Positions 1,256-31,287 of a stretch of DNA of 64,000 nt are shown here, in pieces. Made by a program: the position numbers and the translations under genes. Numbering within the stretch: position 1 is the first letter of the stretch; each line of letters opens with the position of its first letter. The stretch lies in NCBI GenBank assembly GCA_016869765.1, contig VGES01000007.1, positions 13,708 to 77,707 on the forward strand, given 5' to 3'. The notes beneath the pieces were generated by a model that saw only the letters and a program-made list of their open reading frames with translations, was not told the DNA's origin and did not search any database. Source of the stretch: Alphaproteobacteria bacterium. Its GTDB lineage: Bacteria; Pseudomonadota; Alphaproteobacteria; SHVP01.

Positions 1256-2863
1256 CTATGACATCTTGTGTTGTGACACGGCTCCCTCGCGGATCCGGGT
1301 CGACGCGTCGGGCTGGGGATTGCCTTGTCGGGTGATGTCCGTATTCGGTGTCGCGAAAAAGGTGGCTTGAAACTCGGTGGCCAGCTGCTCCCACTTTGCA
1401 TCGCCCTCTGGTGTCAGCTTCTCCGCGATCGATATCTCTGACCAGCGTGACTTTGGAAACTTGACGTACATGGCAAACGTACGCCTCATTCCCTTCATTT
1501 CTTCTCGAGTATAAAACGGCATGGTCATCAAGGTGTCGTCGGAGTTCGCGGGGCAAATTACATCAGGATTGAGGTACCCGCGCGATACCGCTCGACGGCG
1601 AAGGGCCGTGCCAAAGTACGGCTGGAGGATCGAACAACTCATCTGGTCGGGGTTCATCGCGCGATTAATCTCGATTGTGTCGAACGACAATTCACGCGTT
1701 TCGTCGGGAAATCCAATAATGTTGTTGACCGAGAATGGGATCCCGTGATCGCGCGGGATCTTGAGAGCATCGATCGCTAAGCTGTTTTTGTACCGCCGAT
1801 CTACGACCTCGGCCCTGAACCGCTCATTCCCGTGTTCCATGCCGAAGGCGATTAGGTGGAGGCCAACGTCTTTGAGCTTCTTGATGCGTTCGTGCGTCAC
1901 GGTTTCAGGACGGGTCTGACACCAGAACGGGAGTTTGACACTCGAGTACATCTCGCAAAATGCATCGAATTCCTTTGCTGAATAGGCAAAGAACGTGTCC
2001 GCCCAAAAGTACACGTACTCACCCTTCACCTCGTCTCGGAAGTAGATCAGGTCTTCGTAGACCTTTTCGAGGGAACGCTTTCGGAAGAATGAGGATCCAG
2101 TGGTTTCGGCATAGAGGGCGTTCTGGGACGGTGAATTGCAAAATGTACAGGTATAGGGGCAACCGCGATGCGTCTCGATCGGGGCCATCTTGTATATCTT
2201 GCCGTACATTGGCCGATAGAAACGGGCGTCCTCGAAAATCTGCCAATCGGGCATTGGGACGGCATCGACGTCGACAGGGTAGGTCACGCTATTCTTGACA
2301 ATCCCGTTCCTGGTCTTGACCCAGAGATTCGTCACTGTCGAGTAGTCCTTGCCCGACTGCATCCGCTCGCATAGGTCGACGATGGCATTCTCGCCCTCGC
2401 CGACACAGATCATGTCGATCTCATCGAAGCCGATGGCGCGTTCGGGGGCAAACGTACAAAAGACGCCTCCCACAATGGTCGGTATTTTCGCATATCGGAC
2501 GGATCGCAGAAGGTGAACCGCGAGGAGAAACGTACTTTCCGTCGTCGTGACAGCGATGAGATTGGGGCTAAAACTCTCGACCTTGGCAACGAGGTCGTCG
2601 ACTGCGCTCCGGTGCTTGCGAAAGGAATCGGCGCGAGATTCGTAGGGCCTGGTCAGCAGAAGTTTGGAAACGATCTGCTCAGAACTGGGGCCGCGCTGAA
2701 TGTCGGAGTAGTCGTCAGCATCAATATCATAGAACGATGTGTCGAAGAGGGCGACCTCGATCCCGCGCTGCTTGAGCAACTTGGAGAAGATCGCGATTGC
2801 CGGCGGGACAAGGCTCTCCGCGCGCTGGTTGGGGTAGATGAAAAGAACCCTGAAAGTCGACAT
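1256..2863 (-). CDS. B12-binding domain radical SAM enzyme (probable cobalamin-dependent C- or hetero-atom methyltransferase class)
   Basis: N-terminus FRVLFIYPNQ...AIAIFSKLLKQRGIEVALFD is a B12-binding Rossmann region. A radical SAM cluster motif THRGCPYTCTFC (C-x3-C-x2-C) follows, and the length of about 535 aa is typical of class B radical SAM enzymes. Confidence 0.8.
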   Translation of the reverse strand: MSTFRVLFIYPNQRAESLVPPAIAIFSKLLKQRGIEVALFDTSFYDIDADDYSDIQRGPSSEQIVSKLLLTRPYESRADSFRKHRSAVDDLVAKVESFSPNLIAVTTTESTFLLAVHLLRSVRYAKIPTIVGGVFCTFAPERAIGFDEIDMICVGEGENAIVDLCERMQSGKDYSTVTNLWVKTRNGIVKNSVTYPVDVDAVPMPDWQIFEDARFYRPMYGKIYKMAPIETHRGCPYTCTFCNSPSQNALYAETTGSSFFRKRSLEKVYEDLIYFRDEVKGEYVYFWADTFFAYSAKEFDAFCEMYSSVKLPFWCQTRPETVTHERIKKLKDVGLHLIAFGMEHGNERFRAEVVDRRYKNSLAIDALKIPRDHGIPFSVNNIIGFPDETRELSFDTIEINRAMNPDQMSCSILQPYFGTALRRRAVSRGYLNPDVICPANSDDTLMTMPFYTREEMKGMRRTFAMYVKFPKSRWSEISIAEKLTPEGDAKWEQLATEFQATFFATPNTDITRQGNPQPDASTRIREGAVSQHKMS

Positions 2864-2937
2864 TGGCCCTCCGGAACATGTGCTCTTAGATATTGGGCGC
2901 GAGTGTCAGTCGCAAGAGAAAACCAATAACCGGCTTC

Positions 2938-3657
2938 TCATTGTGGGCTTGGCGAGGGCAACCCGGGGCCGGATCCGAGGACCCTTTGAATGAGCGCTTC
3001 CAATACTTGGAAATCCGTCAACGAGTCGATCTCGTAGGACTCGTCTTCTTCCATCTCGAACAGTCCTATCTTGCCGCCGAGCCGATTTTTCGTGGCAAGA
3101 AGGAGATCGGTTTTCGTGACATAGAGCGACCCCGTCTCCCGCCACCAGCGATCTTGAGGTGCGATGTCCTGGCGCCGTGGTCGACGGTGGTAGTCATAAA
3201 GAGCTTCAGGAGCGTGAGGATATCGCCAAAAAAAGTGGTTGTTCTGGCAAACGCTTAGGATTGAATCCGCGCTTTGTCGTTCGAATTCGGCGATAGCGCG
3301 ATCAATCGTGCCCGGTCGTCGTATCGGCGACGTTGCTTGCAGCAGAACGATCGCGTCGGGCTTGTATCCCGCGGTCGCAAGTTCCTCCACCGCATGAATC
3401 ATCGCCGATTCTGTACTGGCTTGATCGGTCGCCAGGGAAGCCGGCCTCATGAACGGCACATCAGCGCCCCAGTTACGGGCAACGTCAGAAATTTCCGGCG
3501 AATCGGTTGAAACGACCACCCGATCGATTGCTGACGACTGACGGGCCTGCTCGATCGTCCATGCAACGAGCGGCCGCCCGGCGATGAGGCGAATGTTCTT
3601 GCCCGGCACGCCCTTTGAGCCACCACGGGCTGGAATGAGCGCCAAATATCGGCTCAT
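2938..3657 (-). CDS. Acylneuraminate (CMP-nonulosonate) cytidylyltransferase, NeuA-like #1
   Basis: N-terminal LALIPARGGSKGVPGKNIRLIAGRPL matches the CMP-NeuAc synthetase signature. The ATG overlaps the stop of the upstream gene (ATGA). Confidence 0.8.
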   Translation of the reverse strand: MSRYLALIPARGGSKGVPGKNIRLIAGRPLVAWTIEQARQSSAIDRVVVSTDSPEISDVARNWGADVPFMRPASLATDQASTESAMIHAVEELATAGYKPDAIVLLQATSPIRRPGTIDRAIAEFERQSADSILSVCQNNHFFWRYPHAPEALYDYHRRPRRQDIAPQDRWWRETGSLYVTKTDLLLATKNRLGGKIGLFEMEEDESYEIDSLTDFQVLEALIQRVLGSGPGLPSPSPQ

Positions 3658-5258
3658 GCGGGGCTCTGCGCGAGTTGCGCGTTCTTGGCTCGCTCCGCAA
3701 GGCTGGCCAACGCAGGTTCCAGCGACTCCGCCAGTCGATCACAAGCTCGGGCTGCTGTGTCATCACCGTAGCCCATGAGATTCCGAACGGTAAATTCCCG
3801 CATGTCGAAACTCGATGATACCACCGCGCCGAGGAACCGTTCTCCTGCTCTGCGCTCGCCATCGTGGGGTTGCTCCAACTCCAGGGCCCACTGCAGCGCC
3901 CCGCGAAGGTCTTCCTCGCGAGTTATCGTTCTAGAGTTTGGCAATATTCGGAACAAGTTGTGGCGCCCAAAACAAACAACCCGCTTGCCGAGGATCGCGC
4001 CCTCGTGGCCCGCCGTGCCGCAGATCGTCGCTACCGCGCTGGCTTGCTTGATGATCTCTTGTCCCTTTTCCTCGATGTCGAGGAGTACGACATTCTTCAA
4101 TGTCTTGATTTGATCGTAGAAGCGATCGGGCCGTCGCCCGACTGCTGGATGATGCTCTTTTACTGCGAGACGCACTCCAGCAGGAAGGTCCCGTGAAAGC
4201 GAGACGATCGTTGCGAGTTGATAGGTCCACTCCGGGGACCGTCCTTGGAACCAAATTTCCGGTTCCACATGTAGCGCGAAGAAGACGAACCGTTGCCCGG
4301 CCAAATCGCTGAGCTTCGTCGTACAACGCCCCGTGACCTGTCGAAAGCTCCGGACGCGCCGGATCGCGAGGGCGACCATGTCTCGGTAGCGATATAGATC
4401 CGACTTGTGGTAGCCCGTGAGGTGCCATTGGACGTAGTTGCGAGTATGGGCAAGGATATCCCTCATCATGCCGGAGATTCTAAAGCGTCGGCGGGCCTCA
4501 TCGTTGAACAAGGCTCCCTGAAACGGGACGCCGGCGAGTTGTTCGTCTGGATTGAGGGGGGCGCCCGAGTGATATTTCGCGGCGGCCAGCTCACAGAAGC
4601 CGAACGTATCGGTCCAGTAGTAGAGGTTCTTGTGGCGTGCGGGAATAAAGTTCCTGACCAAAATTCCATGCCGTTCGGCAACGGTTCCCTGCAGGAGGTT
4701 GGCCTCGACCAAGGCCGTGATTTGAAGCGTCTGAAGAGCCGTTGCCCAGAGGCCTACCTGCTGGTTATAGGCTTCCAAGAGTTGCCAGTAGTCGGCGCCC
4801 TCTGAGTGTCGGGATCTCGGGTGGTAGAAGCCGCCAAGGGCATAACCCTTCCCGTAAAGGCGGTCGGGGACGGCCATCCAATTGTACGTCACGCCGTAGT
4901 TCTCTTCGTTTCGTCGCGCCGCCGCAACCGTCATCGCGCGATCCTCGACCATGGGGATCGGCATCGTCACGAGCGAGGGTATCACTTCGATCGTGTCGTA
5001 GAGATCGTCTGGTGCGCATGTGCGGAAGAGGTTCGCCGCCTCCCGGGAAGAAGCAAAAAGAACGAGGCGGCTGCCGAAGCGGCTTTTCAGTTCTCGCCCT
5101 AGCTGTGGGTAAAAGTGCCGGTACCATGGGTTACCTACGAGGCCAACGCACCGGAGCGCATCGGTCGTGGTCGGTCGCGAATTCACGACAACTCCAAAGT
5201 CCAACCGGCGGCGATGCGCAAAAGGGCGGTTCCGCTGTCGACGCGAAAGAAAGCGCAA
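3654..5258 (-). CDS. Large GT-B-like protein with K-x-HP motif (putative nonulosonate/Kdo transferase, capsule-polysaccharide-biosynthesis-like); start uncertain
   Basis: Long ORF with protein-like composition. Internal LAVKEHHPAVG...VATICGTAGHEGAILGKRVV resembles the HP-motif region of bacterial sialyl/Kdo transferases. The 76-nt overlap with the HAD gene suggests the true start is downstream of 5258. Confidence 0.35.
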   Translation of the reverse strand: MRFLSRRQRNRPFAHRRRLDFGVVVNSRPTTTDALRCVGLVGNPWYRHFYPQLGRELKSRFGSRLVLFASSREAANLFRTCAPDDLYDTIEVIPSLVTMPIPMVEDRAMTVAAARRNEENYGVTYNWMAVPDRLYGKGYALGGFYHPRSRHSEGADYWQLLEAYNQQVGLWATALQTLQITALVEANLLQGTVAERHGILVRNFIPARHKNLYYWTDTFGFCELAAAKYHSGAPLNPDEQLAGVPFQGALFNDEARRRFRISGMMRDILAHTRNYVQWHLTGYHKSDLYRYRDMVALAIRRVRSFRQVTGRCTTKLSDLAGQRFVFFALHVEPEIWFQGRSPEWTYQLATIVSLSRDLPAGVRLAVKEHHPAVGRRPDRFYDQIKTLKNVVLLDIEEKGQEIIKQASAVATICGTAGHEGAILGKRVVCFGRHNLFRILPNSRTITREEDLRGALQWALELEQPHDGERRAGERFLGAVVSSSFDMREFTVRNLMGYGDDTAARACDRLAESLEPALASLAERAKNAQLAQSPA

Positions 5259-5800
5259 CAGTTCCTTCGGGCAGCGTTTTCGTCCGACTCGCCATCCCCA
5301 ACTACCGCAACGCTGGCGCCTGGAAGCGCGGTCTCGGCCAAGATCGTCGCCAAGGTCTCGGGTTTCGAACGCGGGTAACCGTAGGCACGCGTGATGTACT
5401 TACTCCAACCACGTGCGCGCAGAATCTTGAGCAAAGAGGTTTCAGGGGTGTTGGAGCTCACGAAGAGCGTTGCAGACTGGCTTGCACTCATGATGACTTG
5501 TGTAGCGCCTTCCAATTCCGGGCAGTGCGATATCTTTTTGATCATGGCTCGATCGTAGGCTTTGACGTAGTAGGAAACGTCGGCTGAGGCGAGAGGCAGG
5601 CTCTTCCCGCGCATGTGCTCGATCATTCTCGGGATCGTCTGGTAGCGGGTGTCGTTGTCATTTGCGTTGGCCAACGCCTCTTCGACGCATGAGGCATGTT
5701 CTGGCGTTCGTGGAAACAGATCGAAGAAACCCTGCCGTTTGATGTCGTTGGAATCGACCAGGGTACCATCAAAGTCGAAAACGACCGCCTTATAGCGCAT
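5183..5800 (-). CDS. HAD-superfamily hydrolase (probable sugar-phosphate phosphatase)
   Basis: Motif I MRYKAVVFDFDGTLVDS (DxDGT). Start reassigned to the internal ATG at 5800, because the ORF-track start at 5926 lies deep inside the upstream NeuB-like gene. Confidence 0.7.
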   Translation of the reverse strand: MRYKAVVFDFDGTLVDSNDIKRQGFFDLFPRTPEHASCVEEALANANDNDTRYQTIPRMIEHMRGKSLPLASADVSYYVKAYDRAMIKKISHCPELEGATQVIMSASQSATLFVSSNTPETSLLKILRARGWSKYITRAYGYPRSKPETLATILAETALPGASVAVVGDGESDENAARRNCCAFFRVDSGTALLRIAAGWTLELS

Positions 5801-7328
5801 GTCGACGGCGAAAGTAGTTCGTCCAGTTATCGACGTTGGTCTTTCGCTTCGAGCGCTCCAAACGGGCGATTGCAGGATCTTCATAGAAGGAGTCGTTGTT
5901 GTAGTGCGTCGTCGATATCTCTTCAATGATGGCGCCGGTCAGGGTGTGGAACTTGTGCCAGCTTTCTGGTTCAACCAGGAATGTGTCGCCGGGCGTAAGG
6001 GAGAGGTGGAAGCCGTTCTTGACGATTTCGAGGTCTCCATCGATGAGTTGGAAGGTTTCTTCTTTCCTTTTGTGGAAGTGGTACGGATGCTGCTGTCGGG
6101 GAAGCTGGACGACCAGTTTCTTCGCGTATTCGCGATTGATGCAAGTGATAATCACGGCGCCATATTCGCGAAATCGCTTGAGGCCGTAGTGGTGGGAGAT
6201 TTCGATCGAGGCATCGGCGTTGATGTGGACGTTTGCCTGGTTGAGCATGCCGCGAACCTGCAGCATGATTTGATAGATCAGCTGATCGTCGGACACGGTT
6301 GGAAGCGACAGCCCGCCGGGCAACGGGGCCAACGCCGGGTAATCCTTATCGGCGACCAATCCTTCGCGCCAGCTTCCGCTGATCAGTTGGCCGTCCGAAA
6401 CCGGCATTGCGAAGAACACGTCGTCACGGGTCAGTACTTGACCCTTTGTCGTAGCCTGCTTCAGAAAGACCCCTCGCTTCAACTCAAGCAGGGTCCGTCG
6501 TTCTTCCGGTGAGGAAGGCGGTCGGTCGGGGGCCCCAAGCATGGTCTTTGCTTTCGCGTGGGAGGCAAGCCATGTTTCGATTTGGGCGGGCGTGGACGAG
6601 TAACCGTTCAGCGTGTAGCGGTCGTTACCAATGCCAACGTGACGCTCAAAGAGGCGAGCCCCTTTTGCAAGGGCGATCTTGACGGCGTCGACGTTGTTCG
6701 GGTCCTCGTGGGTTGACCAACCGATCGGGACGCTCCGATATCGGTTGACCATCGCGGAAATCTGGTTGAGTTGCAGAAGCTCGTCGGGTGTCGGGTAAAT
6801 CGAGACGCAATGCATCAGCGCGAAGTCGACCTTCTCTGCCTCGAGGAAATTTACCAACCAGTCGATTTCGGCAATGCGCAAACCCGCGGTGGACACGACG
6901 ACTGGCTTTCGGCTCTGGGCGACTCGTTCGAGCAATGGCCGGTCATCCGCGGAGCAACTTGCGACCTTGATGATGTCCAGGTCCATGTTTTCGATGACAT
7001 CGACAGATTCCTCGTCGAATGGCGTGCACATGGTCAGCAGACCGGCGTCTTTAACCGATTTGGCCAACGACCGAAAATCATCCATTGACAGCCGGGTTTC
7101 GGAAAATCGCTTGATGAACTTCAGGTCGGTGCGAGTTCGATAATCCGGATGAATGAAGGAATCGAGTTGCCGAAACTGGAACTTTAGCGCTCCCCGAACC
7201 TTGGCGGCACGACTGACGCTTCCCACTGCGCCGATGATCTGTTGAGCGTGGGCGAGGTCCCCTTGATGGTTGTTGGCCAGGTCGTATATGAACAATTCAT
7301 CGAAGCTGAAAGTTTTCATTCCCTGCAT
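5790..7328 (-). CDS. NeuB-family nonulosonate/ulosonate synthase #1 fused to a C-terminal cupin domain (512 aa)
   Basis: N-terminal ELFIYDLANNHQGDL...KFQ is NeuB-like and an SAF-like segment ELKRGVFLKQATTKGQVLTRDDVFF follows. An extra 150 aa or so follows, with cupin motifs HPYHFHKRKEETFQLIDGDLEI and LTPGDTFLVEPESWHKFHT. Confidence 0.75.
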   Translation of the reverse strand: MQGMKTFSFDELFIYDLANNHQGDLAHAQQIIGAVGSVSRAAKVRGALKFQFRQLDSFIHPDYRTRTDLKFIKRFSETRLSMDDFRSLAKSVKDAGLLTMCTPFDEESVDVIENMDLDIIKVASCSADDRPLLERVAQSRKPVVVSTAGLRIAEIDWLVNFLEAEKVDFALMHCVSIYPTPDELLQLNQISAMVNRYRSVPIGWSTHEDPNNVDAVKIALAKGARLFERHVGIGNDRYTLNGYSSTPAQIETWLASHAKAKTMLGAPDRPPSSPEERRTLLELKRGVFLKQATTKGQVLTRDDVFFAMPVSDGQLISGSWREGLVADKDYPALAPLPGGLSLPTVSDDQLIYQIMLQVRGMLNQANVHINADASIEISHHYGLKRFREYGAVIITCINREYAKKLVVQLPRQQHPYHFHKRKEETFQLIDGDLEIVKNGFHLSLTPGDTFLVEPESWHKFHTLTGAIIEEISTTHYNNDSFYEDPAIARLERSKRKTNVDNWTNYFRRRHAL

Positions 7329-7898
7329 CCTATCGTATCGTAGGCCTTCGCCATGAGGGCGACCCTCCCGTCGGACTGATCGCTATCCCGAAACAAGACC
7401 TCATCATAGGGGTTTCCACGGAGTCGTACGTCACTTGTCGCCGGCCGCCAGTAGGGGGTAAGAACCCTTCCGGCGTAGCGAAGATCAGCAACCCGCCTGA
7501 ACAATTTCGCTTGGGTCCGCGATGGCACGGGCTCGCGCGCGAATAGATTTCTGCGCGCTTCCGAACGCCGGTCGGCGCCAACAACGATCCAGTACGCCTT
7601 ACGCCTTGCTGAGGTGCATCGGCGATCCGTCGGGCCGCTGAACTGGATCGAGGAGCGTGAGTTCTCCCTTTCCCAGGGGGCGTCCCGTGATCGGCGTAGT
7701 TGAAGGGGGGCGCCAAGAGACACTGCAACATTCGACATTTTCGCTCGGCCACTGCGGGGCCATCCTCAGAATCGATCAAGGCGAACGTATTGGCGCTGAA
7801 AGGATTTCACACCTCACCCCCGGTGGGGGGAGGTGCACCAGCAGGTAACTTTTTCATTGGACCAAATTTGGGCCCAACAGTAGGTCGCCGCACGCGTT

Positions 7899-21478: not shown

Positions 21479-21487
21479 CGCCCCGCC

Positions 21488-22612: not shown

Positions 22613-22710
22613 GCGGCGTTCAATTTCACCGCCGACAACCTGTGCGTTCCACTGTTGGTGTCAGGCGTCACGTCCTGTTTCAACCAGACCGGCGCTGTTT
22701 GACGGTGCAC

Positions 22711-25369: not shown

Positions 25370-25420
25370 AACAATACTCGTTCCAATCGATCTTTCATGG
25401 GGCCGCCTTGGAGCAGTGCC

Positions 25421-26389
25421 TCATAGGTGAATGTCAAAGAACAGTCGAGGCGATGCACCAAGACTGTGCTTGAAGTCGGCCCGCGCGGGCGAGTTCGCAC
25501 CGTTGAAGTCCGCCCACTGGAGTTTCTTGTCGAAGACCCGATTGACAAAAGCGACGCACGCCATAGTCGCAGCCCCCGCGAGGCGACCGTCATCGATGGA
25601 CGCATTAGCCACAGCGTGGCCGCTACGAGAGTCGTACAGCGCAAGCTGCGCTGCGACCGGCTCACGATCTCGATCGGTGACAAATAGTATTTCCCCGATA
25701 CTTTCGGTCACGGCCGCCGTCGCCATCGCTCGGAGAGCCCGCCGGTGGTCAGCGGAAACCAGAGTTCCCTGGCGCTCGAACATCGCCGAGTACAGCCTTA
25801 AGAGAAGATCGACATCATTTCCGGAGCTTACCGTGAGACCTTCCTGTTGCGCCCTTCTCAGGTCTTGCCGACGGTCCTTTCGCCCAGCTTTGAGAACCGC
25901 CTCTACGCTGCGCAACTCTGAGCAATCGAGTAGGGCCGTATAGCGAGGCGTGATGGTACACCGGCGTTGGCCTGGTCTCCCGTAGTTGAACCAATCGAAG
26001 CCCCTGATATCCGTAATCGAATGGTGAAGGCCAAAGTGCAGTTGGCCATATTCACGGGTCAGCGTTTCGAGCAACAGGTTGGTCAGGGTCAATAGCCAAA
26101 ACGATTTGCGGGGAATCGGTAGCCCGTCAACATCGGGACTAAACATCACGCCCTGGTAGTAGGCGAACGGCATTCCCGGCAGCACATTCCCCGCTCGACG
26201 CAGTACCGCCACACCGGCCTTGATCTCACCATTTCGGGCGACGAACCATATGTCGGATACGAGATCGTGATACTTAAGAAGCCGGCCATCTTGGAACACC
26301 GTTCCCTGGAGAGAACTCGTTACAAGCAAGCTCCAATCGTCGCCTTCTGAAGAGCCGCGAAAAACCTCGAGGCCGGGGACTGGCAGCAT
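25421..26389 (-). CDS. FemAB-like / GNAT-fold acyl(aminoacyl)transferase, putative
   Basis: Size (about 320 aa) and composition resemble FemAB-family (BioF2-like) transferases. Weak motif-level support only. Confidence 0.4.
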   Translation of the reverse strand: MLPVPGLEVFRGSSEGDDWSLLVTSSLQGTVFQDGRLLKYHDLVSDIWFVARNGEIKAGVAVLRRAGNVLPGMPFAYYQGVMFSPDVDGLPIPRKSFWLLTLTNLLLETLTREYGQLHFGLHHSITDIRGFDWFNYGRPGQRRCTITPRYTALLDCSELRSVEAVLKAGRKDRRQDLRRAQQEGLTVSSGNDVDLLLRLYSAMFERQGTLVSADHRRALRAMATAAVTESIGEILFVTDRDREPVAAQLALYDSRSGHAVANASIDDGRLAGAATMACVAFVNRVFDKKLQWADFNGANSPARADFKHSLGASPRLFFDIHL

Positions 26390-26446
26390 GTCTTGGTTAG
26401 CTCTTTGATTCCGTCAGTATCAGAATCCGCGCGGCATCCCTCGGTC

Positions 26447-28069
26447 TCATCGGATGTCCCCCGCTGGTATCAAGTAGCGCCGGGCATATTCGTCTGAACG
26501 ACGCATCGGGGCTTCCATAGCTGCGTTCGCCAGATCGGCTGGGTCGAACACGATTTCAAGTCCATTGGTCAATCTCGCTTTGACCCATGCGCAACGCGAA
26601 TCGAGGGATACGCGCTCCGATGCATTCCAGCATTGCCCTTCTATTTCGAGCACCACGATTGGCGTTTCGGTCATGAGGGCCTCACCGAAAGTGGTTGTCG
26701 AAACATAGCTGAAGATCAGCAGGTCACTTTCATCGATGATGTGAATGAATGGCTGCCGAACCACGCGCTGGCATGAGGATCTCATGATGGCATCAACCTC
26801 GTTTGGTGCCTCGGGGTGAGCCTTGTAGATGACGTCGTAACCGTTAGACATAAGAACCTTCGCCATTCTCAATTCCACATCGAGGCGTGGACTGAAGAAC
26901 AGAGCCACATCTGTCGGGGCCCGTCGAAACGAGTGGTTGTAGCCAACAATCATCGCGGTTTTGCCCGTGGTCTTCTTCCTCGTCGTCGCAGAGCGAGAAC
27001 GCAAATTATTCCATCGATTGGGGATCACCGAGAAAGTGATCTCGCGAACCTTGGGCACCACGGCGATTTCGGCGCGATCAATCGCCGAGTGCATCGCAGC
27101 TGTCGATTCACACAGATACTCGGTGCAGACTGCGTAGTCGTTGTAACAGATGATGTCGTTGACGATGTGGCCTGCGTTGTGGCCATGCTGTGTACCAATT
27201 ACAGGAACACCCCTTCGCTTGTTCGCTAGTGCCAAGACACGATAGAAGGGTGGGGCTCCGGCTCCCAAGAGAACTCCAGCCGGGCGAACGGTTTCTTGGA
27301 TACCGGCGGTCAATCCAGCAAGGGTTTGCAGGCGCTTGATCCAGGCGTATTTGAGGTCGTCGATCGATATCTCTCCGCCCAGGTCGCCACAGGCACGGAC
27401 GATCTTGGCGGCGCAAGTATCGATTGCGTCGAGCAGCGACGGCGGCAACGGCCGATCGTCGTGGTCCATCCAAAGGGTGGCAAAATCCAAATTATCAACG
27501 AACCAGCCTTGTCGAACTGAGTAAGCTTCTAGCATTGGAGAAAGGTGCCCGACCACTAGCGCGGTTGGTCCAGTCTGGCCAATGAGTCTGCGAAGCAGGG
27601 GGACTCCTGGGTTGGCGCCAATGCGCCGCTTGATCCTGCGGACGCGAGAACGTATCGACGATCCGCGGGCGAGCGCCACCCGATGTTGAATCGCGAGATG
27701 CCCCCAATCAGGCCGATAGTAGGTGGCCGCGTGCGGCCCGACGTCTAAGGTGAGGCCGTATTCTTCGGCCTTGCGGGCGGTCGCCGACGAGTGGCCGATC
27801 TGGATTAAGACATCCAGTATGCGCACATCAGCCAAGAACAAGTCTTGGTCGCTGCCCGCGAGACCGTCAACAGCCTCCTTGAAGGCTTGGTAGACCGTGC
27901 CGCAAAAACCTAGGAAGTCGTCTTCGGGAATAGGCCAAGGGGGAGGTCGAGCCGTCGAACCAAAGCCGAGCCTCTGGTAGCTGACAACATCAGTCGCGAG
28001 AGTCCGACCGACCGTAGTGGCATCGAGCGTCCTATGTCTCGTCGGTGGTGAGAACTCGCGGCTTCTCAT
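26447..28069 (-). CDS. Large GT-B-like protein with K-x-HP motif (putative nonulosonate/Kdo transferase)
   Basis: Start reassigned to the internal ATG at 28069, which overlaps the upstream stop (ATGA). The ORF-track N-terminal 88 aa are Arg-rich junk. Contains VIYKAHPEAPNE ... FSYVSTTTFGEALMTETPIVVLE, the same K-x-HP architecture as the 3654-5258 protein. Confidence 0.35.
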   Translation of the reverse strand: MRSREFSPPTRHRTLDATTVGRTLATDVVSYQRLGFGSTARPPPWPIPEDDFLGFCGTVYQAFKEAVDGLAGSDQDLFLADVRILDVLIQIGHSSATARKAEEYGLTLDVGPHAATYYRPDWGHLAIQHRVALARGSSIRSRVRRIKRRIGANPGVPLLRRLIGQTGPTALVVGHLSPMLEAYSVRQGWFVDNLDFATLWMDHDDRPLPPSLLDAIDTCAAKIVRACGDLGGEISIDDLKYAWIKRLQTLAGLTAGIQETVRPAGVLLGAGAPPFYRVLALANKRRGVPVIGTQHGHNAGHIVNDIICYNDYAVCTEYLCESTAAMHSAIDRAEIAVVPKVREITFSVIPNRWNNLRSRSATTRKKTTGKTAMIVGYNHSFRRAPTDVALFFSPRLDVELRMAKVLMSNGYDVIYKAHPEAPNEVDAIMRSSCQRVVRQPFIHIIDESDLLIFSYVSTTTFGEALMTETPIVVLEIEGQCWNASERVSLDSRCAWVKARLTNGLEIVFDPADLANAAMEAPMRRSDEYARRYLIPAGDIR

Positions 28070-29388
28070 CTTTCCGTATGGCCATCGCTGGGTGCCAACA
28101 AACCAGCGGAAACGAGTTTTCGCACAGCGGGGAGGAGACTCGGCAGGGGCCGCGCAATCAAATCGGCGATCGCCAAGAGGTCGATCTCGCCGTCCGAATA
28201 GGCCAGCAGATTGAGCATCACGCGGACTTGTTCGCTTGCCTGTGCACCGCCAAGACTCGGATATAGCCCGTAGCGCCCGAGCTGCGGCTCTCCGACGGTG
28301 GTGGCGCGATAGGTTTGATTTGCCTCGAGGCACTCGATCGCGTGCTTAACGATCCGAAAACCGCCTTCGAGTCCAAGAGGGGTGACCAGATCGAGGTTGT
28401 CGAGTGAGGTGTGGTACTCGGGATAGGTGCCGTACTTCGAGCGCATCAATGAGCAGACCGGAAGGTCGACGGTCGGGAAGCCGTATTGTCGCTCATCGCT
28501 GGCTCGATCGAGGTAGTCATAGGTGTTAAAGCTACCGACCAAATGTTTCAGGGAGTGGCGGGCGGCGCGGTCAGCGAGCGTATTGCCTCGTCGCGAAGCC
28601 AAATACGAATATGCCCGCTCATCGCCAATACAGGTGAGGACGAAGCCTGCTGCGACCTGTCTCTTCAGTTCGTCAAGGCTCCGGCTCAAGAACGCGAGTG
28701 TGCCTATCGTCTCCGGCACAAAAACGAGCCGGTATCCGAAACCCCGGCGCTGAAGCGACATCAACCATTTCGCGATAAACGTCGCGACAATGGGCCCCGA
28801 AAGCTCGTTGTTTGCCATCGACGGGTGGCAAACGTAGGTCGACAAAAGAATCTCTTTGTCTCGAGTGCCTGGGAGCCTGAATTCGCCGTAGGTCAGGCTG
28901 CCGCTTGTAAGCGAGGCGTCTATACAGACCTCGTAGTCGCCGGGCAGGAGGGCATCGCGCTGCCGTTGGGAAAGGCAAAACCCCCAATTCCGCGAATAGT
29001 ACGAGGTGACGTATGGAATTGCGTCTGGCAACTCGGGCTTGGAGTGCAAGTGTCGCTGAAGTTCGTCGAGGGAGAGGCGGCGGCGAACGGGAACCGAGTA
29101 GCTAACGACATGGAGGTTGTTGGTTGCGGTGTCGACAATCTTTCGGCCGTCCGGCCCGGAGATCCAAGCCTCCCTGAGATTCCACTCGTCGGGAATCGTC
29201 CAGTCGAAGACCTTCGTCCCACTCGGGACCTCGGTAATCTCCAGCGTCGGGAGGTGTTCCCTTAGGATAGAGAGTGTTTGCCGCACACCATCTCCCGTGA
29301 TCGAGCGGCAGATTGGAAAGAGGCGCCGCGCGAGCGCGTGCATCTGCGATCCGAGGGCTTCATTTTTCGAACTCGATTGACCGGTCAT
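28066..29388 (-). CDS. Aminopeptidase-like-domain protein (DUF4910-type), glycan-cluster associated
   Basis: N-terminal SITGDGVRQTLSILREHLPTLEITEVPSGTKVFDWTIPDEW resembles DUF4910/aminopeptidase-like proteins common in polysaccharide loci. Confidence 0.4.
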   Translation of the reverse strand: MTGQSSSKNEALGSQMHALARRLFPICRSITGDGVRQTLSILREHLPTLEITEVPSGTKVFDWTIPDEWNLREAWISGPDGRKIVDTATNNLHVVSYSVPVRRRLSLDELQRHLHSKPELPDAIPYVTSYYSRNWGFCLSQRQRDALLPGDYEVCIDASLTSGSLTYGEFRLPGTRDKEILLSTYVCHPSMANNELSGPIVATFIAKWLMSLQRRGFGYRLVFVPETIGTLAFLSRSLDELKRQVAAGFVLTCIGDERAYSYLASRRGNTLADRAARHSLKHLVGSFNTYDYLDRASDERQYGFPTVDLPVCSLMRSKYGTYPEYHTSLDNLDLVTPLGLEGGFRIVKHAIECLEANQTYRATTVGEPQLGRYGLYPSLGGAQASEQVRVMLNLLAYSDGEIDLLAIADLIARPLPSLLPAVRKLVSAGLLAPSDGHTER

Positions 29389-30293
29389 CGCGGATCGTCA
29401 GACAGCCTAAGCAGGTCGGAGTCGTTCCAGGCACGCCAATCATCGCAGAACGAGTCGAGGCAACGGTCCAAGGTCGGAAGGCGCATCCCGAAAGCGTGCT
29501 CGAAGAACTCTACGTTCATCGCCATGCCGCGAGGTCTGTAGGTCTTGAGCTGGGCGTCGCCAACGCTGGCAACCACGCAAGTCTCGGTCGAAAGGCCAAG
29601 GCGCGCGGCAAGTCTCATGGCGAATTCCGCCTTACTCACCCCCGGGCCGTGATAGCCCACGTTGAACGTCCCCCGCTGCCACCGCTCGACGACTCTTGCC
29701 AGAATCCCCGGCAAGAAGCCCGCATAGATCGGGTTGAAGAAGACATCACCGAAAAGGCGCAGAGGCTGTTTCGACCGAAACGATCGAGTGAGCCATCCCG
29801 CAAACCCCTCCTTCTTTTCCGTACCCAAACAAAAAAAATTGAGTCGTAGGGCAGCGGCGTTGGCTGACAGCGCGATGTCTTCTCCCCAAAGCTTGGTCAA
29901 CGCATACACGTTCGTCGGTCGGACATCGGCCTCTCGATTGGCACCGGCACCGTCATAGACGTGGTCGCTCGACACATAGATGATTTTGGCGTCACCGGCG
30001 GCCGATACGAGGTTTCGTGTAGCGTCGACGTTTAGTCGGTAGGCGCGAGTAGGATCTGCCTCGCAAGCATCGACATCGGCCAATGCGGCCAAATGAAGGA
30101 TGACATCGGGCCGACAGCGCTTCACGAGATCGTTGACCGAACCTTTTTCCGTCAGGTCGACGGCGAGGTACGATTCACCGGAGGCCGGGGCACTGCTGGC
30201 TGCATGCCGGCAGACGAAGTATGTTTCCAAGTCTTCCGCAATAGCCCGGCCCAACAGCCCGCTGGACCCGGTGACTAGGAGTGTTGGTCTCAA
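29385..30293 (-). CDS. RmlD-like NAD(P)H-dependent sugar-nucleotide 4-ketoreductase (dTDP-4-dehydrorhamnose reductase family; WbvR-like)
   Basis: LLVTGSSGLLGRAI Rossmann motif and SSDHVYDG (compare RmlD STDYVFDG). A 4-nt overlap with the next gene. Confidence 0.7.
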   Translation of the reverse strand: MRPTLLVTGSSGLLGRAIAEDLETYFVCRHAASSAPASGESYLAVDLTEKGSVNDLVKRCRPDVILHLAALADVDACEADPTRAYRLNVDATRNLVSAAGDAKIIYVSSDHVYDGAGANREADVRPTNVYALTKLWGEDIALSANAAALRLNFFCLGTEKKEGFAGWLTRSFRSKQPLRLFGDVFFNPIYAGFLPGILARVVERWQRGTFNVGYHGPGVSKAEFAMRLAARLGLSTETCVVASVGDAQLKTYRPRGMAMNVEFFEHAFGMRLPTLDRCLDSFCDDWRAWNDSDLLRLSDDPR

Positions 30294-30306
30294 CTTGATG
30301 GAGCCG

Positions 30307-31287
30307 CTACGAACCGGTGTCGAGGATTGACAGCAGCTGTTGGTTGGTCAGCCATTGATCATTGGTCTCACTAGAGTAGCAGAATTCGGGAGCAACCAGT
30401 TTGGCGCTGGCCGGGGCAACGCGGTCCCGTGACCAAAGCGCAAACGCCGGCTCGATGACGAAGCGATCCCCCATATCGTAGGTGTAACGACTATCGTCCT
30501 CGGTGATCATCACTTCGTGCAACTTCTCGCCGGGACGAATCCCGATGGTCTTGAGAGGTAACGATGGCGCGATCGCCCGGGCAACGTCGATCACCTTCAT
30601 GCTTGGGATTTTGGGGACGAAAATCTCACCACCTTGCATTTCGCGAACACAGCGTACGACAAAGTCAACGCCTTGTTGCAAGGTGAGCCAAAATCGAGTC
30701 ATGCGCGGATCGGTGATAGGGAGGTGATCGGTGCCCCGAGCGATCAACTGACGGAAGAACGGAATGACGCTACCGCGTGAACCTATGACATTTCCGTACC
30801 GTACGACGGAAAACCTGGTTCCAACCCGACCACTCAGATTGTTGGCCGCAATGAATATCTTGTCGGAAGCAAGTTTGCTGGCGCCGTAGAGATTGATCGG
30901 ATTGGCCGCCTTGTCAGTCGATAGGGCAAGCACCCTCTGGACCCGGTTCCTGATCGCGGCTCGTACGACGTTCTCGGCACCGAAGACGTTCGTATGAATA
31001 CACTCGAAAGGGTTGTATTCGGCGGTTGGTACTTGTTTGAGTGCCGCAGCATGAACAACCAGATCGACTTCCCGCATCGCCAGCTCCAGGCGCTCCGCAT
31101 CTCGAACGTCGCCGATGAAATATCGGATCCGGCGGTCGTCGCGAAGCTCCGGATCCTGCTGCATCTCGTACTGCTTGGCTTCATCACGCGAAAACACGGC
31201 AATACGTGCCGGTGCATGCTGTCGGGTCAACGTTCGGACAAACGAACGTCCGAACGAGCCTGTCGCGCCGGTGACAAGGATGGACAT
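30307..31287 (-). CDS. UDP-GlcNAc 4,6-dehydratase, inverting (PseB/FlaA1/CapE/WbvB family)
   Basis: Start reassigned to the internal ATG at 31287 (verified cat at 31285-31287). MSILVTGATGSFGRSFV...IAVFSRDEAKQ is the hallmark of this family. 327 aa fits. Confidence 0.8.
   Translation of the reverse strand: MSILVTGATGSFGRSFVRTLTRQHAPARIAVFSRDEAKQYEMQQDPELRDDRRIRYFIGDVRDAERLELAMREVDLVVHAAALKQVPTAEYNPFECIHTNVFGAENVVRAAIRNRVQRVLALSTDKAANPINLYGASKLASDKIFIAANNLSGRVGTRFSVVRYGNVIGSRGSVIPFFRQLIARGTDHLPITDPRMTRFWLTLQQGVDFVVRCVREMQGGEIFVPKIPSMKVIDVARAIAPSLPLKTIGIRPGEKLHEVMITEDDSRYTYDMGDRFVIEPAFALWSRDRVAPASAKLVAPEFCYSSETNDQWLTNQQLLSILDTGS

Follow-up and report, generated by a model that had tools for sequence, protein, structure and literature searches.

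The window analysed here, a stretch of 64,000 nucleotides from an uncultured alphaproteobacterium, contains a minus-strand block running from position 31287 down to 1256, with 26 credible genes and one doubtful ORF. The block is flanked on the plus strand by a convergent GT4 gene (69–1205) and a divergent methylase gene (31537–32379), and lies near LPS-type genes encoding WaaA, a WecA-like GT4-family initiating transferase, RmlA/B, and ArnT-like and ArnC-like proteins. Pfam and NCBIfam searches confirm that three NeuB-family synthases (SynA, SynB, and SynC), three cytidylyltransferases (CT1, CT2, and CT3), a NeuC, and a PseB are all encoded on this strand, as proposed in the initial annotation, with the starts of SynA, SynB, and CT3 refined to 7319, 14441, and 17969 from gene calls on identical contigs. 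An assembly artefact is ruled out, as the block recurs on at least nine independent contigs from metagenome assemblies (Logan, ENA, and JGI) carrying an identical NeuC protein and matching gene order, with one such locus (L001) 99.98% identical to the window across 21,179 bp. The genes had been described as chained by 4-nt ATGA overlaps into a single translationally coupled block. Overlaps of 4 nt are present at 8 of the 26 junctions (five ATGA, three GTGA), with the other 18 consisting of one 11-nt overlap, one 41-nt overlap as called, one zero-gap junction, and 15 gaps of 4–171 nt (the largest being 171, 163, 160, and 98 nt), so that coupling holds within sub-blocks and not over the whole 30 kb. 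Scans for consensus promoters and terminators returned sites no commoner than in shuffled sequence.

The three synthases share pairwise identities of only 21–29% and are therefore deep paralogues, each belonging to its own large conserved subfamily whose members are 57–74% identical to it. SynA, SynB, and SynC score 140, 209, and 228 bits against Pfam NeuB (PF03102, cut-off 22.1 bits), and CT1, CT2, and CT3 score 97, 52, and 80 bits against CTP_transf_3 (PF02348, cut-off 22.6 bits). No synthase reaches an NCBIfam NeuB/PseI equivalog cut-off (TIGR03569, 400 bits; TIGR03586, 340 bits), and no cytidylyltransferase reaches any NCBIfam equivalog cut-off, thus the products are not readable from annotation. 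The metal-binding histidines and the subfamily-invariant active site are kept in all three synthases in the family alignments, which, together with the low mutual identity and the separate subfamilies, rules out a recent tandem duplication and argues against a loss of catalytic residues in two of them.

The first gene of the block encodes PseB, an inverting UDP-GlcNAc 4,6-dehydratase (30307–31287; TIGR03589 equivalog 510 bits, cut-off 408; Polysacc_synt_2 340 bits) with GATGSFG and YGASK motifs, and is followed by the gene for an RmlD-like nucleotide-sugar 4-ketoreductase (29385–30293; RmlD_sub_bind 129 bits; TIGR01214 rmlD 129 bits, cut-off 224), which in the PDB is closest to dTDP-4-dehydrorhamnose reductases (2GGS, E = 2e-26). 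We group these two genes with a second half, at 17205–19890, as cassette C. The second half encodes SynC (18820–19890; SAF 32 bits), a small GT2 protein of GT-A fold (18141–18860; Glycos_transf_2 79 bits; PpgS-like 98 bits, below cut-off), and CT3 (17205–17969), a cytidylyltransferase related to KdsB and PDB 6OEW. SynC reaches 257 bits with TIGR03569 and 214 bits with TIGR03586, and its family alignment (A3) is invariant at D23 (for E25), K51, K132, D137 (for E134), H221, E240, H242, D253, and R320; the exact SynC protein (P0121) is annotated at NCBI as originating from an “Alphaproteobacteria bacterium” MAG. NCBIfam matches of CT3 are to KdsB-type profiles only, none scoring above 59 bits, and include no PseF match; its top PDB match is 6OEW (152 bits), deposited as “Cytidylyltransferase”.

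In the proposed route PseB would yield a UDP-4-keto-6-deoxy sugar, with reduction at C4 by the RmlD-like enzyme replacing the transamination step of the Pse pathway. Cassette C differs from the Pse pathway in having an RmlD-like 4-reductase and no aminotransferase, with none found in the related locus L011, among the remaining ORFs scanned in locus L090, or in the whole window. The sugar would then be released, possibly through the GT2 protein, which may be either a UDP-sugar hydrolase replacing PseG or a polyprenyl-phosphate sugar synthase, before its condensation with PEP by SynC, which would form a 5-acetamido-3,5,9-trideoxy-nonulosonic acid for activation by CT3. Alternatively, PseB and the RmlD-like enzyme could provide the glycan backbone with a 6-deoxy-HexNAc, their genes lying 9.5 kb away from SynC; tailoring and candidate transferase genes fill the roughly 9 kb between the two halves of the cassette. 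In L011, L045, and L090, PseB, RmlD-like, SynC, and CT3 genes co-occur, in part with GT2, with the PseB homologues (54–62% identity) directly upstream of the RmlD-like and SynC genes, and the CT3 homologues (41–58%) downstream of SynC; GT2 homologues (51–55%) are found directly behind SynC in L011 and L012. The predicted product of cassette C, a 3,5,9-trideoxy acid, belongs to a known kind of nonulosonic acid (NulO), with one described alongside 6-deoxy-L-AltNAc in one Fusobacterium O-chain, as cited in PMC7371886 (reference 4).

The genes between the two halves of cassette C begin with a protein combining DUF4910/DUF2172 (aminopeptidase-like) and winged-helix HTH_47 domains (28066–29388; Pfam 345, 129, and 72 bits), a homologue of which (59% identity) adjoins a FemAB-like gene in L011, with the DUF4910/DUF2172 domain fused to an AMP-binding domain in L012. 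A FemAB-like GNAT acyl or aminoacyl transferase is likewise encoded here (25421–26389; Acetyltransf_6 30 bits; weak match to the TIGR03019 FemAB family), with its homologue in L011, as is a radical SAM/SPASM enzyme (22711–23826; Radical_SAM 62 bits, SPASM 59 bits), a gene of this kind also being present at the L011 edge. These are followed by a sulfotransferase (21488–22612; Sulfotransfer_3 44 bits, Sulfotransfer_1 40 bits) 9 nt from the next gene, a SAM-dependent methyltransferase (20732–21478; Methyltransf_25 69 bits, Methyltransf_11 61 bits), and a PhyH-family Fe(II)/2-oxoglutarate dioxygenase (19931–20722; PhyH 88 bits) weakly matching TIGR04324, a sporadic carbohydrate cluster 2OG-Fe(II) oxygenase. 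A weak PhyH-like protein (16287–17144; PhyH 25 bits), called as a 285-aa gene on identical contigs, lies beyond CT3, and the last gene of the block encodes a class B, B12-binding radical SAM enzyme (1256–2863; Radical_SAM 71 bits, B12-binding 40 bits), a class that includes C-methyltransferases; this protein reaches no NCBIfam equivalog, and such genes are also found in four other NulO loci (L032, L077, L161, and L173). The tailoring enzymes had been said to lack counterparts in characterised Neu, Leg, and Pse loci, which holds, while several of them are fixed in cassettes that recur in numerous uncharacterised genomes.

Three further proteins of the block are candidate transferases. Neither unk540 (26447–28069, 540 aa) nor unk510 (3654–5186, 510 aa) was matched in Pfam and NCBIfam searches. 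Homologues of unk540 adjoin SynC homologues in L011 and L012, and the protein carries YKAHP ahead of a GT-B-like S/T..G.E motif, features that are no more than suggestive of a CMP-sugar transferase for cassette C. The candidate CMP-sugar transferase unk510, encoded between the HAD and CT1 genes of cassette A, similarly carries KEHHP ahead of a GT-B-like motif, with homologues in two NulO loci (L056 and L088). A weak NCBIfam match of unk459 (23990–25369, 459 aa) to the BFO_1060-family glycosyltransferases (E = 7e-6, residues 277–417) points to a putative nonulosonic-acid transferase of TagB/BFO_1060 type, with the Tannerella BFO_1060 relatives being Pse/Leg transferases (PMC5420450). Homologues of unk459 adjoin cytidylyltransferases in seven loci (L012, L013, L019, L023, L024, L029, and L066), and comparison of the unk459 and unk510 families by hhalign gives a probability of 89%.

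Cassette B (7899–16215) opens with a fused TMD-NBD ABC exporter of MsbA/HepA/PglK type (14446–16215; ABC_tran 113 bits, ABC_membrane 46 bits; HepA family 266 bits, below cut-off), homologues of which lie directly upstream of SynB homologues in seven loci (L013, L014, L015, L023, L024, L066, and L068). SynB (13362–14441; SAF 39 bits; TIGR03569 281 bits, TIGR03586 206 bits) finds N. meningitidis NeuB as its top PDB match (165–166 bits), and its family alignment (A1) is invariant at E31, K59, K136, E141, H221, E240, H242, and D253, as well as at KKPG, so that R314 of N. meningitidis NeuB is replaced by Lys throughout the SynB subfamily. The hydrolysing UDP-GlcNAc 2-epimerase NeuC (12132–13310) reaches its equivalog (TIGR03568, 368 bits, cut-off 236), with NeuC homologues (44–73% identity) placed immediately after SynB in the majority of 80 genome loci. 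It is succeeded by a PGDH-like D-2-hydroxyacid dehydrogenase (11188–12135; 2-Hacid_dh_C 182 bits; PGDH 210 bits, below cut-off) joined to its neighbours by GTGA overlaps at both ends; a 2-hydroxyacid dehydrogenase accompanies SynB, NeuC, and the cytidylyltransferase across many phyla. A divergent ThDP-dependent enzyme of acetolactate-synthase/carboligase type (9653–11191; TPP_enzyme_N, _M, and _C 76, 42, and 67 bits; top NCBIfam match 167 bits, cut-off 509) follows, with catabolic acetolactate synthases (100–109 bits), carboxyethylarginine synthase, and BbmA as its top PDB matches and homologues (44–50% identity) at the equivalent position in six loci. The cassette is completed by a B-type GFO/IDH/MocA oxidoreductase (8636–9652) with three GFO_IDH_MocA Pfam domains, which is 51–57% identical to other cassette B GFOs and only 27% identical to the cassette A GFO, and by CT2, a NeuA-like cytidylyltransferase (7899–8639; PseF model 103 bits, cut-off 206) with CMP-Neu5Ac synthetases as top PDB matches (78–82 bits). 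The gene order, including the position of the dehydrogenase and a terminal CT2 homologue (55–65% identity), is shared with L013, L015, L024, L025, L029, and L034, and with L028 minus the ThDP gene. Cassette B looks like a Neu5Ac-type route with extra chemistry, in which NeuC would convert UDP-GlcNAc to ManNAc, SynB would form a Neu5Ac-type acid, and CT2 would activate it, with the conserved trio of dehydrogenase, ThDP enzyme, and GFO oxidoreductase probably adding further chemistry, and the ABC exporter flipping or exporting the product glycan.

Cassette A (2938–7319) is built around SynA (5790–7319), in which a NeuB part with a SAF-like part (residues about 1–325) is fused to a D-lyxose/D-mannose-isomerase-like cupin (about 330–509; Lyx_isomer 36 bits, Cupin_2 30 bits). 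The synthase part finds 3G8R, “Probable spore coat polysaccharide biosynthesis protein E”, as its top PDB match (E = 5e-88), and the SynA family alignment (A2; mean column identity 78%) is invariant at D13, K46, K118, S123 (for E134), H204, E225, and H227, and in the cupin at H414, H416, K419, E420, E421, and H455. By Pfam, PDB sequence search, and predicted fold, the cupin resembles D-lyxose/mannose isomerase, with its AF2 model (pLDDT 84.7) giving D-lyxose isomerases as top Foldseek matches (E about 1e-10, TM 0.62–0.67). A HAD-IA phosphatase (5183–5800; Hydrolase 49 bits, HAD_2 44 bits; TIGR01549 38 bits, cut-off 23) with intact DFDGT and GDGESD motifs follows, then unk510, its gene joined by an ATGA overlap to that of the NeuA-like cytidylyltransferase CT1 (2938–3657; PseF model 144 bits, cut-off 206; top PDB matches CMP-Neu5Ac synthetases, 94–115 bits), which we pair with SynA on adjacency.

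Among 80 metagenome loci, the gene next upstream of SynA is an A-type GFO wherever it is readable (59 of 59), and the gene next downstream is a HAD in 53 of the loci in which it is readable; Rhodoligotrophos defluvii has the order GFO, NeuB-cupin, HAD, CT, and P0099 is a single protein combining GFO and NeuB-cupin parts. In contrast, the cassette A described here lacks this otherwise universal partner, with no remnant of it at 7320–7898, and its cytidylyltransferase is not of the usual type, those of other loci being closer to CT2 (34–44% identity) than to CT1. The probable spacer at 7320–7898, between cassettes B and A, holds only the doubtful Arg-rich orf140 (7316–7738), which has no Pfam or NCBIfam family match, no homologue in the other loci, and a codon-position-2 GC of 0.56, compared with 0.38–0.49 for the surrounding enzyme genes and 0.53 for the GT2 gene.

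Cassette A looks like a Kdn/Kdo-style route, in which the SynA cupin would turn a ketose into an aldose (mannose(-6-P) from fructose(-6-P), for instance, or lyxose from xylulose). This aldose would be condensed with PEP by the NeuB domain, the HAD enzyme would strip a phosphate, and CT1 would form the CMP sugar. For Bacteroides and Prymnesium, a route from Man-6-P through Kdn-9-P and Kdn to CMP-Kdn has been established (PMC6200933). Since a PDB search found no homologue of the HAD protein and no sugar kinase is present, the phosphorylated form of the cassette A route is a guess. The chemistry of SynA could also differ from NulO synthesis, with Asp and Ser replacing E25 and E134, two of three glutamates proposed to be catalytic, and Met, within an invariant FAMP, in place of R314; the metal-binding histidines are retained. 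The Kdn/Kdo-style route would lead to a non-aminated Kdn-like 9-carbon acid or perhaps to the 8-carbon acid raised in the initial annotation, which this isomerase-fused synthase could still provide.

Multi-synthase clusters have been described before, with several synthases and CMP-synthetases in the Leptospira interrogans cluster (PMC3438082) and NeuB1, NeuB2, and NeuB3 in Campylobacter jejuni (PMC7591256). NeuB-family genes number two in 6 of 80 genome loci and three in 2 of 80, with two Chloroflexi genomes carrying three, and the earlier view that known loci normally carry a single synthase/cytidylyltransferase pair is overstated. The initial annotation's proposal of up to three CMP-activated acids is upheld and is the most economical reading, as each synthase sits in a different cassette with a cytidylyltransferase alongside, and each cassette would have its own way to the aldose that its NeuB-family enzyme condenses with PEP. 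Gene families, their intactness, the deep paralogy, and the separate recurrence of each cassette are shown here, and the substrates and products of cassettes A, B, and C, the match of CT1 to SynA, and the transferase roles of unk540, unk510, and unk459 are inferred. We read the block as a mosaic surface-glycan island of three independent ulosonic-acid cassettes, whose likeliest output is three different CMP-activated acids, a reading to which we assign a probability of roughly 0.6. The block unites on one strand three different intact pathways, all of them uncharacterised, each of which occurs alone in other bacteria.

All credible genes of the block at 1256-31287 (n = 26, plus one doubtful ORF) lie on the minus strand, with Pfam and NCBIfam models recovering the content described in the initial annotation, namely three NeuB-family synthases, three CTP_transf_3 cytidylyltransferases (CTs), NeuC, and PseB, all on that strand. 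The NeuC gene (12132-13310) scores 368 bits against a TIGR equivalog cut-off of 236 bits, and the PseB gene (30307-31287) scores 510 bits against an equivalog cut-off of 408 bits. At least nine contigs from Logan, ENA, and JGI assemblies carry an identical NeuC protein with the same neighbours, and one of them, L001, matches the window at 99.98% identity across 21 kb, which shows the locus to be real and rules out an assembly chimera. Gene calls on identical contigs refined three starts, to 7319, 14441, and 17969.

The three synthases, SynA (5790-7319), SynB (13362-14441), and SynC (18820-19890, present in NCBI as an identical protein of an 'Alphaproteobacteria bacterium' MAG), score 140, 209, and 228 bits respectively against the Pfam NeuB family (PF03102, gathering threshold 22.1 bits). 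Pairwise identity is about 24% between SynA and SynB, 21% between SynA and SynC, and 28% between SynB and SynC, with each synthase belonging to its own large family whose members are 57–74% identical to it. Judged by these identities (range 21–29%) the three are deep paralogues, which rules out one orthologous group arising by recent tandem duplication. The metal-binding histidines and PEP-site lysines are invariant in all three subfamily alignments, the equivalents of H215/H236 and K53/K129 of N. meningitidis NeuB (NmNeuB) being H204, H227, K46, and K118 in SynA, H221, H242, K59, and K136 in SynB, and H221, H242, K51, and K132 in SynC. At the positions of the proposed NmNeuB catalytic residues E25, E134, and E234 and of R314 of the SAF domain (PMC8208679), SynB has E, E, E, and K ('KKPG' in 18/18 sequences), SynC carries an invariant D, D, E, and R, and SynA has D, S, E, and M, invariant in a family with a mean column identity of 78%. 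The E134D exchange is reported to be common among environmental, archaeal, and eukaryotic enzymes (PMC8208679). As every deviation is fixed within its subfamily, these changes are signatures of the subfamilies and not decay, and the concern that the catalytic residues of two synthases might have decayed is not borne out.

Class assignment of the synthases was based on HMM cut-offs, PDB matches, and published signature positions. The Neu5Ac synthase model TIGR03569 (cut-off 399.65 bits) is not reached by SynA, SynB, or SynC (130, 281, and 257 bits), nor is the PseI model TIGR03586 (cut-off 340.25 bits; 116, 206, and 214 bits). The residue before E134 and the residue at position 184 distinguish the known pathways, with F/Ser in PseI and Gly/Tyr in LegI (PMC7371886); the corresponding pairs are G/S in SynB, G/T in SynC, and C/S in SynA. 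Neither SynB nor SynC has the Tyr at position 184 expected of LegI, the dehydratase, aminotransferase, and acetyltransferase genes of the LegB/LegC/LegH type that such a pathway would call for are not matched by any aminotransferase gene in the window, and the label 'N,N'-diacetyllegionaminate synthase' given by JGI to some SynB homologues is an automatic annotation. By these measures, none of the three synthases is of the canonical Neu, Leg, or Pse type.

The CTs of cassettes A, B, and C (CT1, CT2, and CT3) belong to three different subfamilies. All three match PF02348 (CTP_transf_3; 97, 52, and 80 bits against a threshold of 22.6) and carry the N-terminal (A/P)RxGS.(G/R).PGK motif, as PARGGSKGVPGKN, PARGGSKGIPGKN, and ARVGSTRLPGKV respectively. 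The PseF model TIGR03584 (cut-off 205.7) is not reached by CT1 (144 bits) or CT2 (103 bits) and has no match in CT3, and the KdsB model TIGR00466 (cut-off 155.2) is not reached by CT1 (44 bits) or CT3 (35 bits) and has no match in CT2. CT1 is generically NeuA-like, CT2 is nearest to CMP-Neu5Ac synthetases in a PDB search, and CT3 comes closest in the PDB to 6OEW, an entry named simply 'Cytidylyltransferase' and probably a Leptospira protein.

The order of cassette B (7899-16215), ABC-SynB-NeuC-2-hydroxyacid dehydrogenase (2HADH)-ThDP enzyme-GFO/IDH/MocA oxidoreductase (GFO)-CT2, recurs gene for gene in the loci L013 (a Devosiaceae MAG), L015, L024, L025, L029 (a Rhizobium sp. MAG), and L034, with L028 carrying the same order without the ThDP gene; the ThDP-carrying cassette recurs in several proteobacterial lineages. 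A simpler SynB-NeuC-CT-2HADH set is spread over many phyla and includes the archaeon Halovenus salina, whose chromosome (L018) carries ABC-SynB-NeuC-CT-2HADH with a SynB homologue 54% identical to that of the window, so that the cassette core crosses domains of life. SynB is nearest to NmNeuB in a PDB search, yet lies below the Neu5Ac synthase equivalog cut-off, and the combination of NeuC, a NeuB-like synthase, and a NeuA-like CT makes a Neu5Ac-type core likely. Beyond this set the cassette has three further conserved enzymes (2HADH, ThDP, and GFO), the ThDP enzyme being a divergent carboligase or decarboxylase that reaches no more than 109 bits to any solved structure. At somewhat less than even odds, the product of cassette B would be a Neu5Ac-derived, further modified acid.

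Cassette C comprises PseB and an RmlD-like gene (29385-31287) together with SynC, a GT2 gene, and CT3 (17205-19890). In the window, ~9 kb separates the RmlD-like gene from SynC, an interval encoding DUF4910, FemAB-like, and radical SAM (rSAM)-SPASM proteins, a sulfotransferase, a methyltransferase, a PhyH dioxygenase, and two large proteins without an assigned family. PseB, RmlD-like, SynC, (GT2), and CT3 are contiguous in L011 and in the Chloroflexi MAGs L045 and L090, with L011 proteins showing identities to the window of 62% (PseB), 32% (RmlD-like), 68% (SynC), 51% (GT2), and 58% (CT3), and L012 carries an epimerase-type SDR, SynC, and GT2. Inspection of the L011 gene calls and a scan of the remaining ORFs of L090 turned up no DegT-type aminotransferase, and the 64-kb window has no DegT-type aminotransferase, PseH, or PseG, with PseB the only member of the Pse pathway to pass. 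The RmlD-like protein matches nucleotide-sugar 4-ketoreductases. In terms of Pse chemistry, PseB followed by 4-reduction, and not transamination, gives a UDP-6-deoxy-HexNAc, and the sugar derived from this gives a 5-acetamido-3,5,9-trideoxy acid with PEP. The product of cassette C is tentatively proposed to be a trideoxy 7-hydroxy acid. Cassette C resembles the pseudaminic acid pathway in having a true PseB first and a NeuB-family synthase and CT last, but it lacks PseC, PseH, and PseG, in whose place it has an RmlD-like 4-ketoreductase and a small GT2, and neither SynC nor CT3 passes the corresponding Pse model (PseI and PseF). The sole reported trideoxy nonulosonic acid (NulO) is that of Fusobacterium nucleatum 25586, where it occurs with 2-acetamido-2,6-dideoxy-L-altrose (6-deoxy-L-AltNAc; PMC7371886 and its reference 4). 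These two sugars are the products that Pse chemistry would lead one to expect of cassette C, a precedent that is chemical only. We know of no description of the genes for the Fusobacterium trideoxy NulO. Just outside the block, a Pse-biosynthesis-associated methylase (31537-32379, plus strand; TIGR03587, 169 bits against a cut-off of 112) is divergent from PseB over a 249-bp gap, in a window without a complete Pse pathway.

Cassette A (2938-7319) centres on SynA, in which a NeuB-like part is fused to a C-terminal cupin. In the PDB, the NeuB-like part comes nearest to 3G8R (E = 5e-88), an entry titled simply 'probable spore coat polysaccharide biosynthesis protein E', with NmNeuB reaching only 69 bits, and a literature search on 3G8R and on NeuB-cupin/lyxose isomerase fusions found no characterisation of the fusion family. 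The cupin scores 36 bits against Pfam Lyx_isomer (cut-off 20.8) and keeps the His/His/Glu/His ligands and the K-E-E-T-F (K-x-E-T-F) motif, with H414, H416, K419, E420, E421, T422, F423, and H455 invariant in the family alignment. Its AlphaFold model (pLDDT 84.7) matches D-lyxose isomerases along its whole length (E about 1e-10, TM 0.62–0.67), with 2Y0O, 7NZQ, and 3KMH matched at E 3e-10 to 1e-9 over 166–203 alignment columns and mannose- or fructose-bound structures among the matches (ligands of 7NZQ and 3MPB). The modelled cupin has the fold and the motif of a D-lyxose/D-mannose isomerase, and is a putative isomerase.

The NeuB-isomerase fusion family is found at at least 469 metagenome loci. 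The cupin domain alone retrieves 320 cluster representatives at E <= 1e-10, with the fusion architecture in at least 64 of the best 150, corresponding to at least 64 distinct clusters at 50% identity. Rhodoligotrophos defluvii (L007) and many metagenome loci share the order (unknown)-GFO-NeuB~cupin-HAD-CT, and in 80 metagenome loci a GFO of a type different from that of cassette B (A-type) lies upstream of the SynA homologue in 59/59 readable cases, with a HAD gene downstream in 53 cases. One compared protein, P0099 (L009 10001-12646), is an 881-aa triple fusion of GFO, NeuB, and cupin, which ties the oxidoreductase functionally to the isomerase-synthase. In the window the A-type GFO is absent upstream of SynA, and a tblastn search for a pseudogene remnant found none. 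SynA is instead preceded by ~580 bp (7320-7898) with only a doubtful ORF, orf140 (7316-7738), a stretch that is probably the seam joining cassettes B and A. This 140-aa, Arg-rich ORF is judged doubtful as a gene on account of its weak codon-position GC signal and lack of homologues. Downstream, unk510 (3654-5186, 510 aa) is inserted between the HAD gene and CT1, and a PDB sequence search with the HAD protein (HAD-IA type) gave no match.

The established route to CMP-Kdn runs from Man-6-P through Kdn-9-P and Kdn (PMC6200933), and the gene types of a phospho-route to Kdn or Neu5Ac-9-P are present and conserved together in cassette A loci. The layout of cassette A mirrors this route with a built-in putative ketose-aldose isomerase. 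Like the pathway of Bacteroides thetaiotaomicron and Prymnesium parvum, which consists of a Kdn-9-P synthase, a Kdn-9-P phosphatase, and a CMP-Kdn synthetase (PMC6200933), it has a NeuB-family synthase, a HAD phosphatase, and a CT, and amino-sugar enzymes are absent; however, it differs in the fused D-lyxose/mannose-isomerase domain, the GFO partner fixed elsewhere, the Ser in place of Glu134, and the IA type of the HAD. The product is possibly a Kdn-like or an 8-carbon non-aminated acid. A proposed tie between the B12-dependent rSAM enzyme (B12-rSAM) and cassette A was set aside as weak, with the gene in L173 lying 4.5 kb off among unrelated genes.

We consider it probable (roughly 0.6) that three different CMP-acids would be made by the block. 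What the sequence data establish directly is family membership, intactness, deep paralogy, the conserved structure of the cassettes, and the isomerase fold of SynA. What was first observed at this locus is in large part confirmed by the present analysis, and its interpretation as up to three activated acids is supported in part. An unlikely, though the strongest, alternative is that there are fewer than three end products, with the cassettes sharing one or two scaffolds, or with one of them, most likely A, being a non-functional or redundant passenger acquired as the island came together. The lack of the otherwise universal A-type GFO, the ~580 bp with a doubtful ORF that splits cassette A from B, and the atypical CT and inserted gene of cassette A all point in this direction, as do the single ABC exporter, the location of most tailoring genes within one stretch (19931-29388), and the GC content of the island, which is below that of the flank and suggests recent assembly from parts. 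Against this, each of the 26 credible genes is intact, the residues invariant in each subfamily are preserved, the sequence is identical in at least nine contigs, and the genes of cassette A overlap by 4–11 nt, as is typical of expressed, coupled genes; three CT subfamilies and three large candidate transferases are also hard to square with a single donor.

Slightly less probable still is that the SynA cassette does not make a NulO, but another 2-keto-3-deoxy acid (such as an 8-carbon Kdo isomer from lyxose) or another PEP-derived product, leaving the block with two NulO modules and something else; this partly overlaps our own reading of cassette A. The exchanges E134 to Ser, E25 to Asp, and R314 to Met are invariant across the SynA family, which lies far closer to the 'probable' enzyme 3G8R (E 5e-88) than to NmNeuB (69 bits), the top fold matches include isomerases of lyxose, a pentose, and the cassette is often found by itself in an unrelated gene neighbourhood (L007, for example). 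However, a CT of the CMP-sialic-acid-synthetase type is a fixed member of the cassette, so a 2-keto-3-deoxy sugar acid donor is expected either way, mannose and fructose are further substrates of these isomerases (ligands of 7NZQ and 3MPB), which fits Kdn, and the PEP-side and metal-site residues K46, K118, H204, E225, and H227 are kept. An artefact or decay, in the form of a chimeric assembly or of tandem duplicates becoming pseudogenes, is highly improbable, with identical gene order on at least nine contigs from different assemblers and samples, the 99.98% match of L001, paralogues 21–29% identical, and 0 frameshifts or internal stops in assigned genes, and with orf140 and a 153-aa ORF at 17983-18444 the sole oddities and no support found. 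Three different CMP-acids remain our preferred reading.

The genes of the block had been described as chained by ATGA overlaps, and this holds for part of the junctions, with 8/26 being 4-nt overlaps (5 ATGA and 3 GTGA) and the remaining 18 comprising overlaps of 11 nt and 41 nt, one gapless junction, and 15 gaps of 4–171 nt. The four largest intergenic gaps measure 98–171 nt, and scans for consensus promoters and terminators found no excess of sites over shuffled sequence. There is a weak terminator-like hairpin at 18019-18003. The 153-aa ORF at 17983-18444 (minus strand) occupies the 171-nt gap ahead of CT3 and extends into the 3' end of the GT2 gene; the GC of its codon positions is non-coding-like and it has no homologues, and it is regarded as doubtful.

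The GC content of the island (55–59%, window 1-34000) and of the flank (62–66%, 44000-64000) differ by a step that fits variable surface-glycan DNA assembled by horizontal transfer. Downstream of the block lie further glycosyltransferases, an ArnC/PgfS-like GT2, an ArnT-like PMT_2, RmlB- and RmlA-like genes, WaaA, and a WecA-like initiating transferase, with neither flagellin nor aminotransferase genes found within the 64-kb window; the setting is an LPS or surface-glycan region. Adjoining the island at 36943-44053 are the ArnC/PgfS-like GT2, an Fe-S flavoenzyme of the FadH/OYE type (whose 332 bits to the mycofactocin-system OYE2 model fall short of the cut-off), two CpaM-like methyltransferases, and the ArnT-like PMT_2, possibly a lipid-carrier-based periplasmic glycosylation set. 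The ORF of WaaA (Kdo transferase; 47672-49435, plus strand) spans 587 aa with the Pfam domain starting at residue 193, and may have an N-terminal extension or a start called too far upstream.

Three large proteins that match no assigned family, unk459 (23990-25369), unk510, and unk540 (26447-28069), recur beside CTs or synthases in other loci and are candidate transferases. The first, unk459, weakly matches the BFO_1060 family (25 bits against a cut-off of 200), which contains the Pse/Leg transferases of Tannerella (PMC5420450), and is related to unk510 by profile comparison with a probability of 89%. It resembles the TagB-like GT-B proteins Tanf_01245 and BFO_1060 of Tannerella forsythia in length (459 vs 445 aa) and in adjoining CMP-NulO genes, but its family match is far below the cut-off and a motif scan found no HP motif in it. 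'KEHHP' at position 346 of unk510 and 'YKAHP' at position 418 of unk540 are each followed by a GT-B-like S/T..G.E..G motif. These K-x-H-P motifs resemble the CMP-binding HP motif of bacterial sialyltransferases. Sulfotransferase genes adjoin all three cassette types across unrelated genomes, at 21488-22612 in the window and in L013, L014, L007, L109, L116, L122, and L141, which hints at sulfated ulosonic acids.

Several synthases within one genome are not without precedent. The NeuB genes of Campylobacter jejuni lie in two separate regions, for LOS and for flagellar glycosylation. The three NeuB paralogues of this genome are dedicated to Neu5Ac, Leg, and Pse (PMC7591256, PMC7371886) and match the corresponding signatures, whereas SynA, SynB, and SynC match none of these and fail both equivalogs. 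[quoted passage not shown] In contrast to the block, where an isomerase is the fusion partner of the phospho-route synthase and no aminotransferase is found, the Leptospira cluster has aminotransferases and a full legionaminic acid pathway; the block in turn has a ThDP enzyme, 2HADH, B12-rSAM, rSAM-SPASM, a sulfotransferase, and dioxygenases. Within the fetched flanks of 80 SynB-centred genome loci, a single NeuB-family gene is present in 72, two in 6, and three in 2 (L045 and L090). The initial view that known loci carry one synthase/CT pair is not supported, in light of Leptospira (PMC3438082), C. jejuni (PMC7591256), and these 8/80 loci with two or three NeuB genes. A second synthase occurs in 3/28 SynA loci of at least 9 kb, and the counts over SynA and SynB loci show the triple to be rare, not unique. 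In the Chloroflexi MAGs L090 (1-21035) and L045, the three NeuB-family genes lie with three to four CTs on one strand, and the third module of L090 has the order GFO-SDR-CT~HAD fusion-NeuB, with a NeuB lacking the SAF domain and another phospho-type route. The novelty lies in how the three cassettes are combined and in their all being uncharacterised.

A more speculative reading, to which we assign a low likelihood, is that at least one cassette makes a CMP-ulosonic acid whose skeleton is extended or branched (C10 or C11). In this scheme the GFO oxidoreductase would introduce a keto group, a two-carbon unit taken from a 2-oxo acid would be attached by the ThDP carboligase-like enzyme, and 2HADH would reduce the product; alternatively or additionally, the B12-dependent rSAM enzyme at the block end might C-methylate the chain. 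Precedents for the modification of sugars include YerE and GenK. CMP-ulosonic acids with an extended C10 backbone have been detected by MS in the alphaproteobacterium Magnetospirillum gryphiswaldense, with the genes not given (bioRxiv 10.64898/2026.04.20.719630), and the extension cassette, if the reading is true, would supply the missing genes for these 'higher-carbon' CMP-ulosonic acids.

Within this island, three uncharacterised, widespread cassettes are set side by side. Sialic-acid-like sugars shape the recognition of bacteria by phages, predators, and immune systems, and few of their pathways are understood (Neu, Leg, Pse, and Kdn). The aminotransferase-free PseB cassette offers a concrete gene hypothesis for trideoxy NulOs, which are represented by a single structure and no described pathway. 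Being compact and cloneable, at ~4 to 8 kb each, the cassettes are directly testable entry points to new CMP-sugars and sialyltransferase-like enzymes, and they may explain orphan mass-spectrometry signals of environmental bacteria, including those of C10 ulosonic acids.
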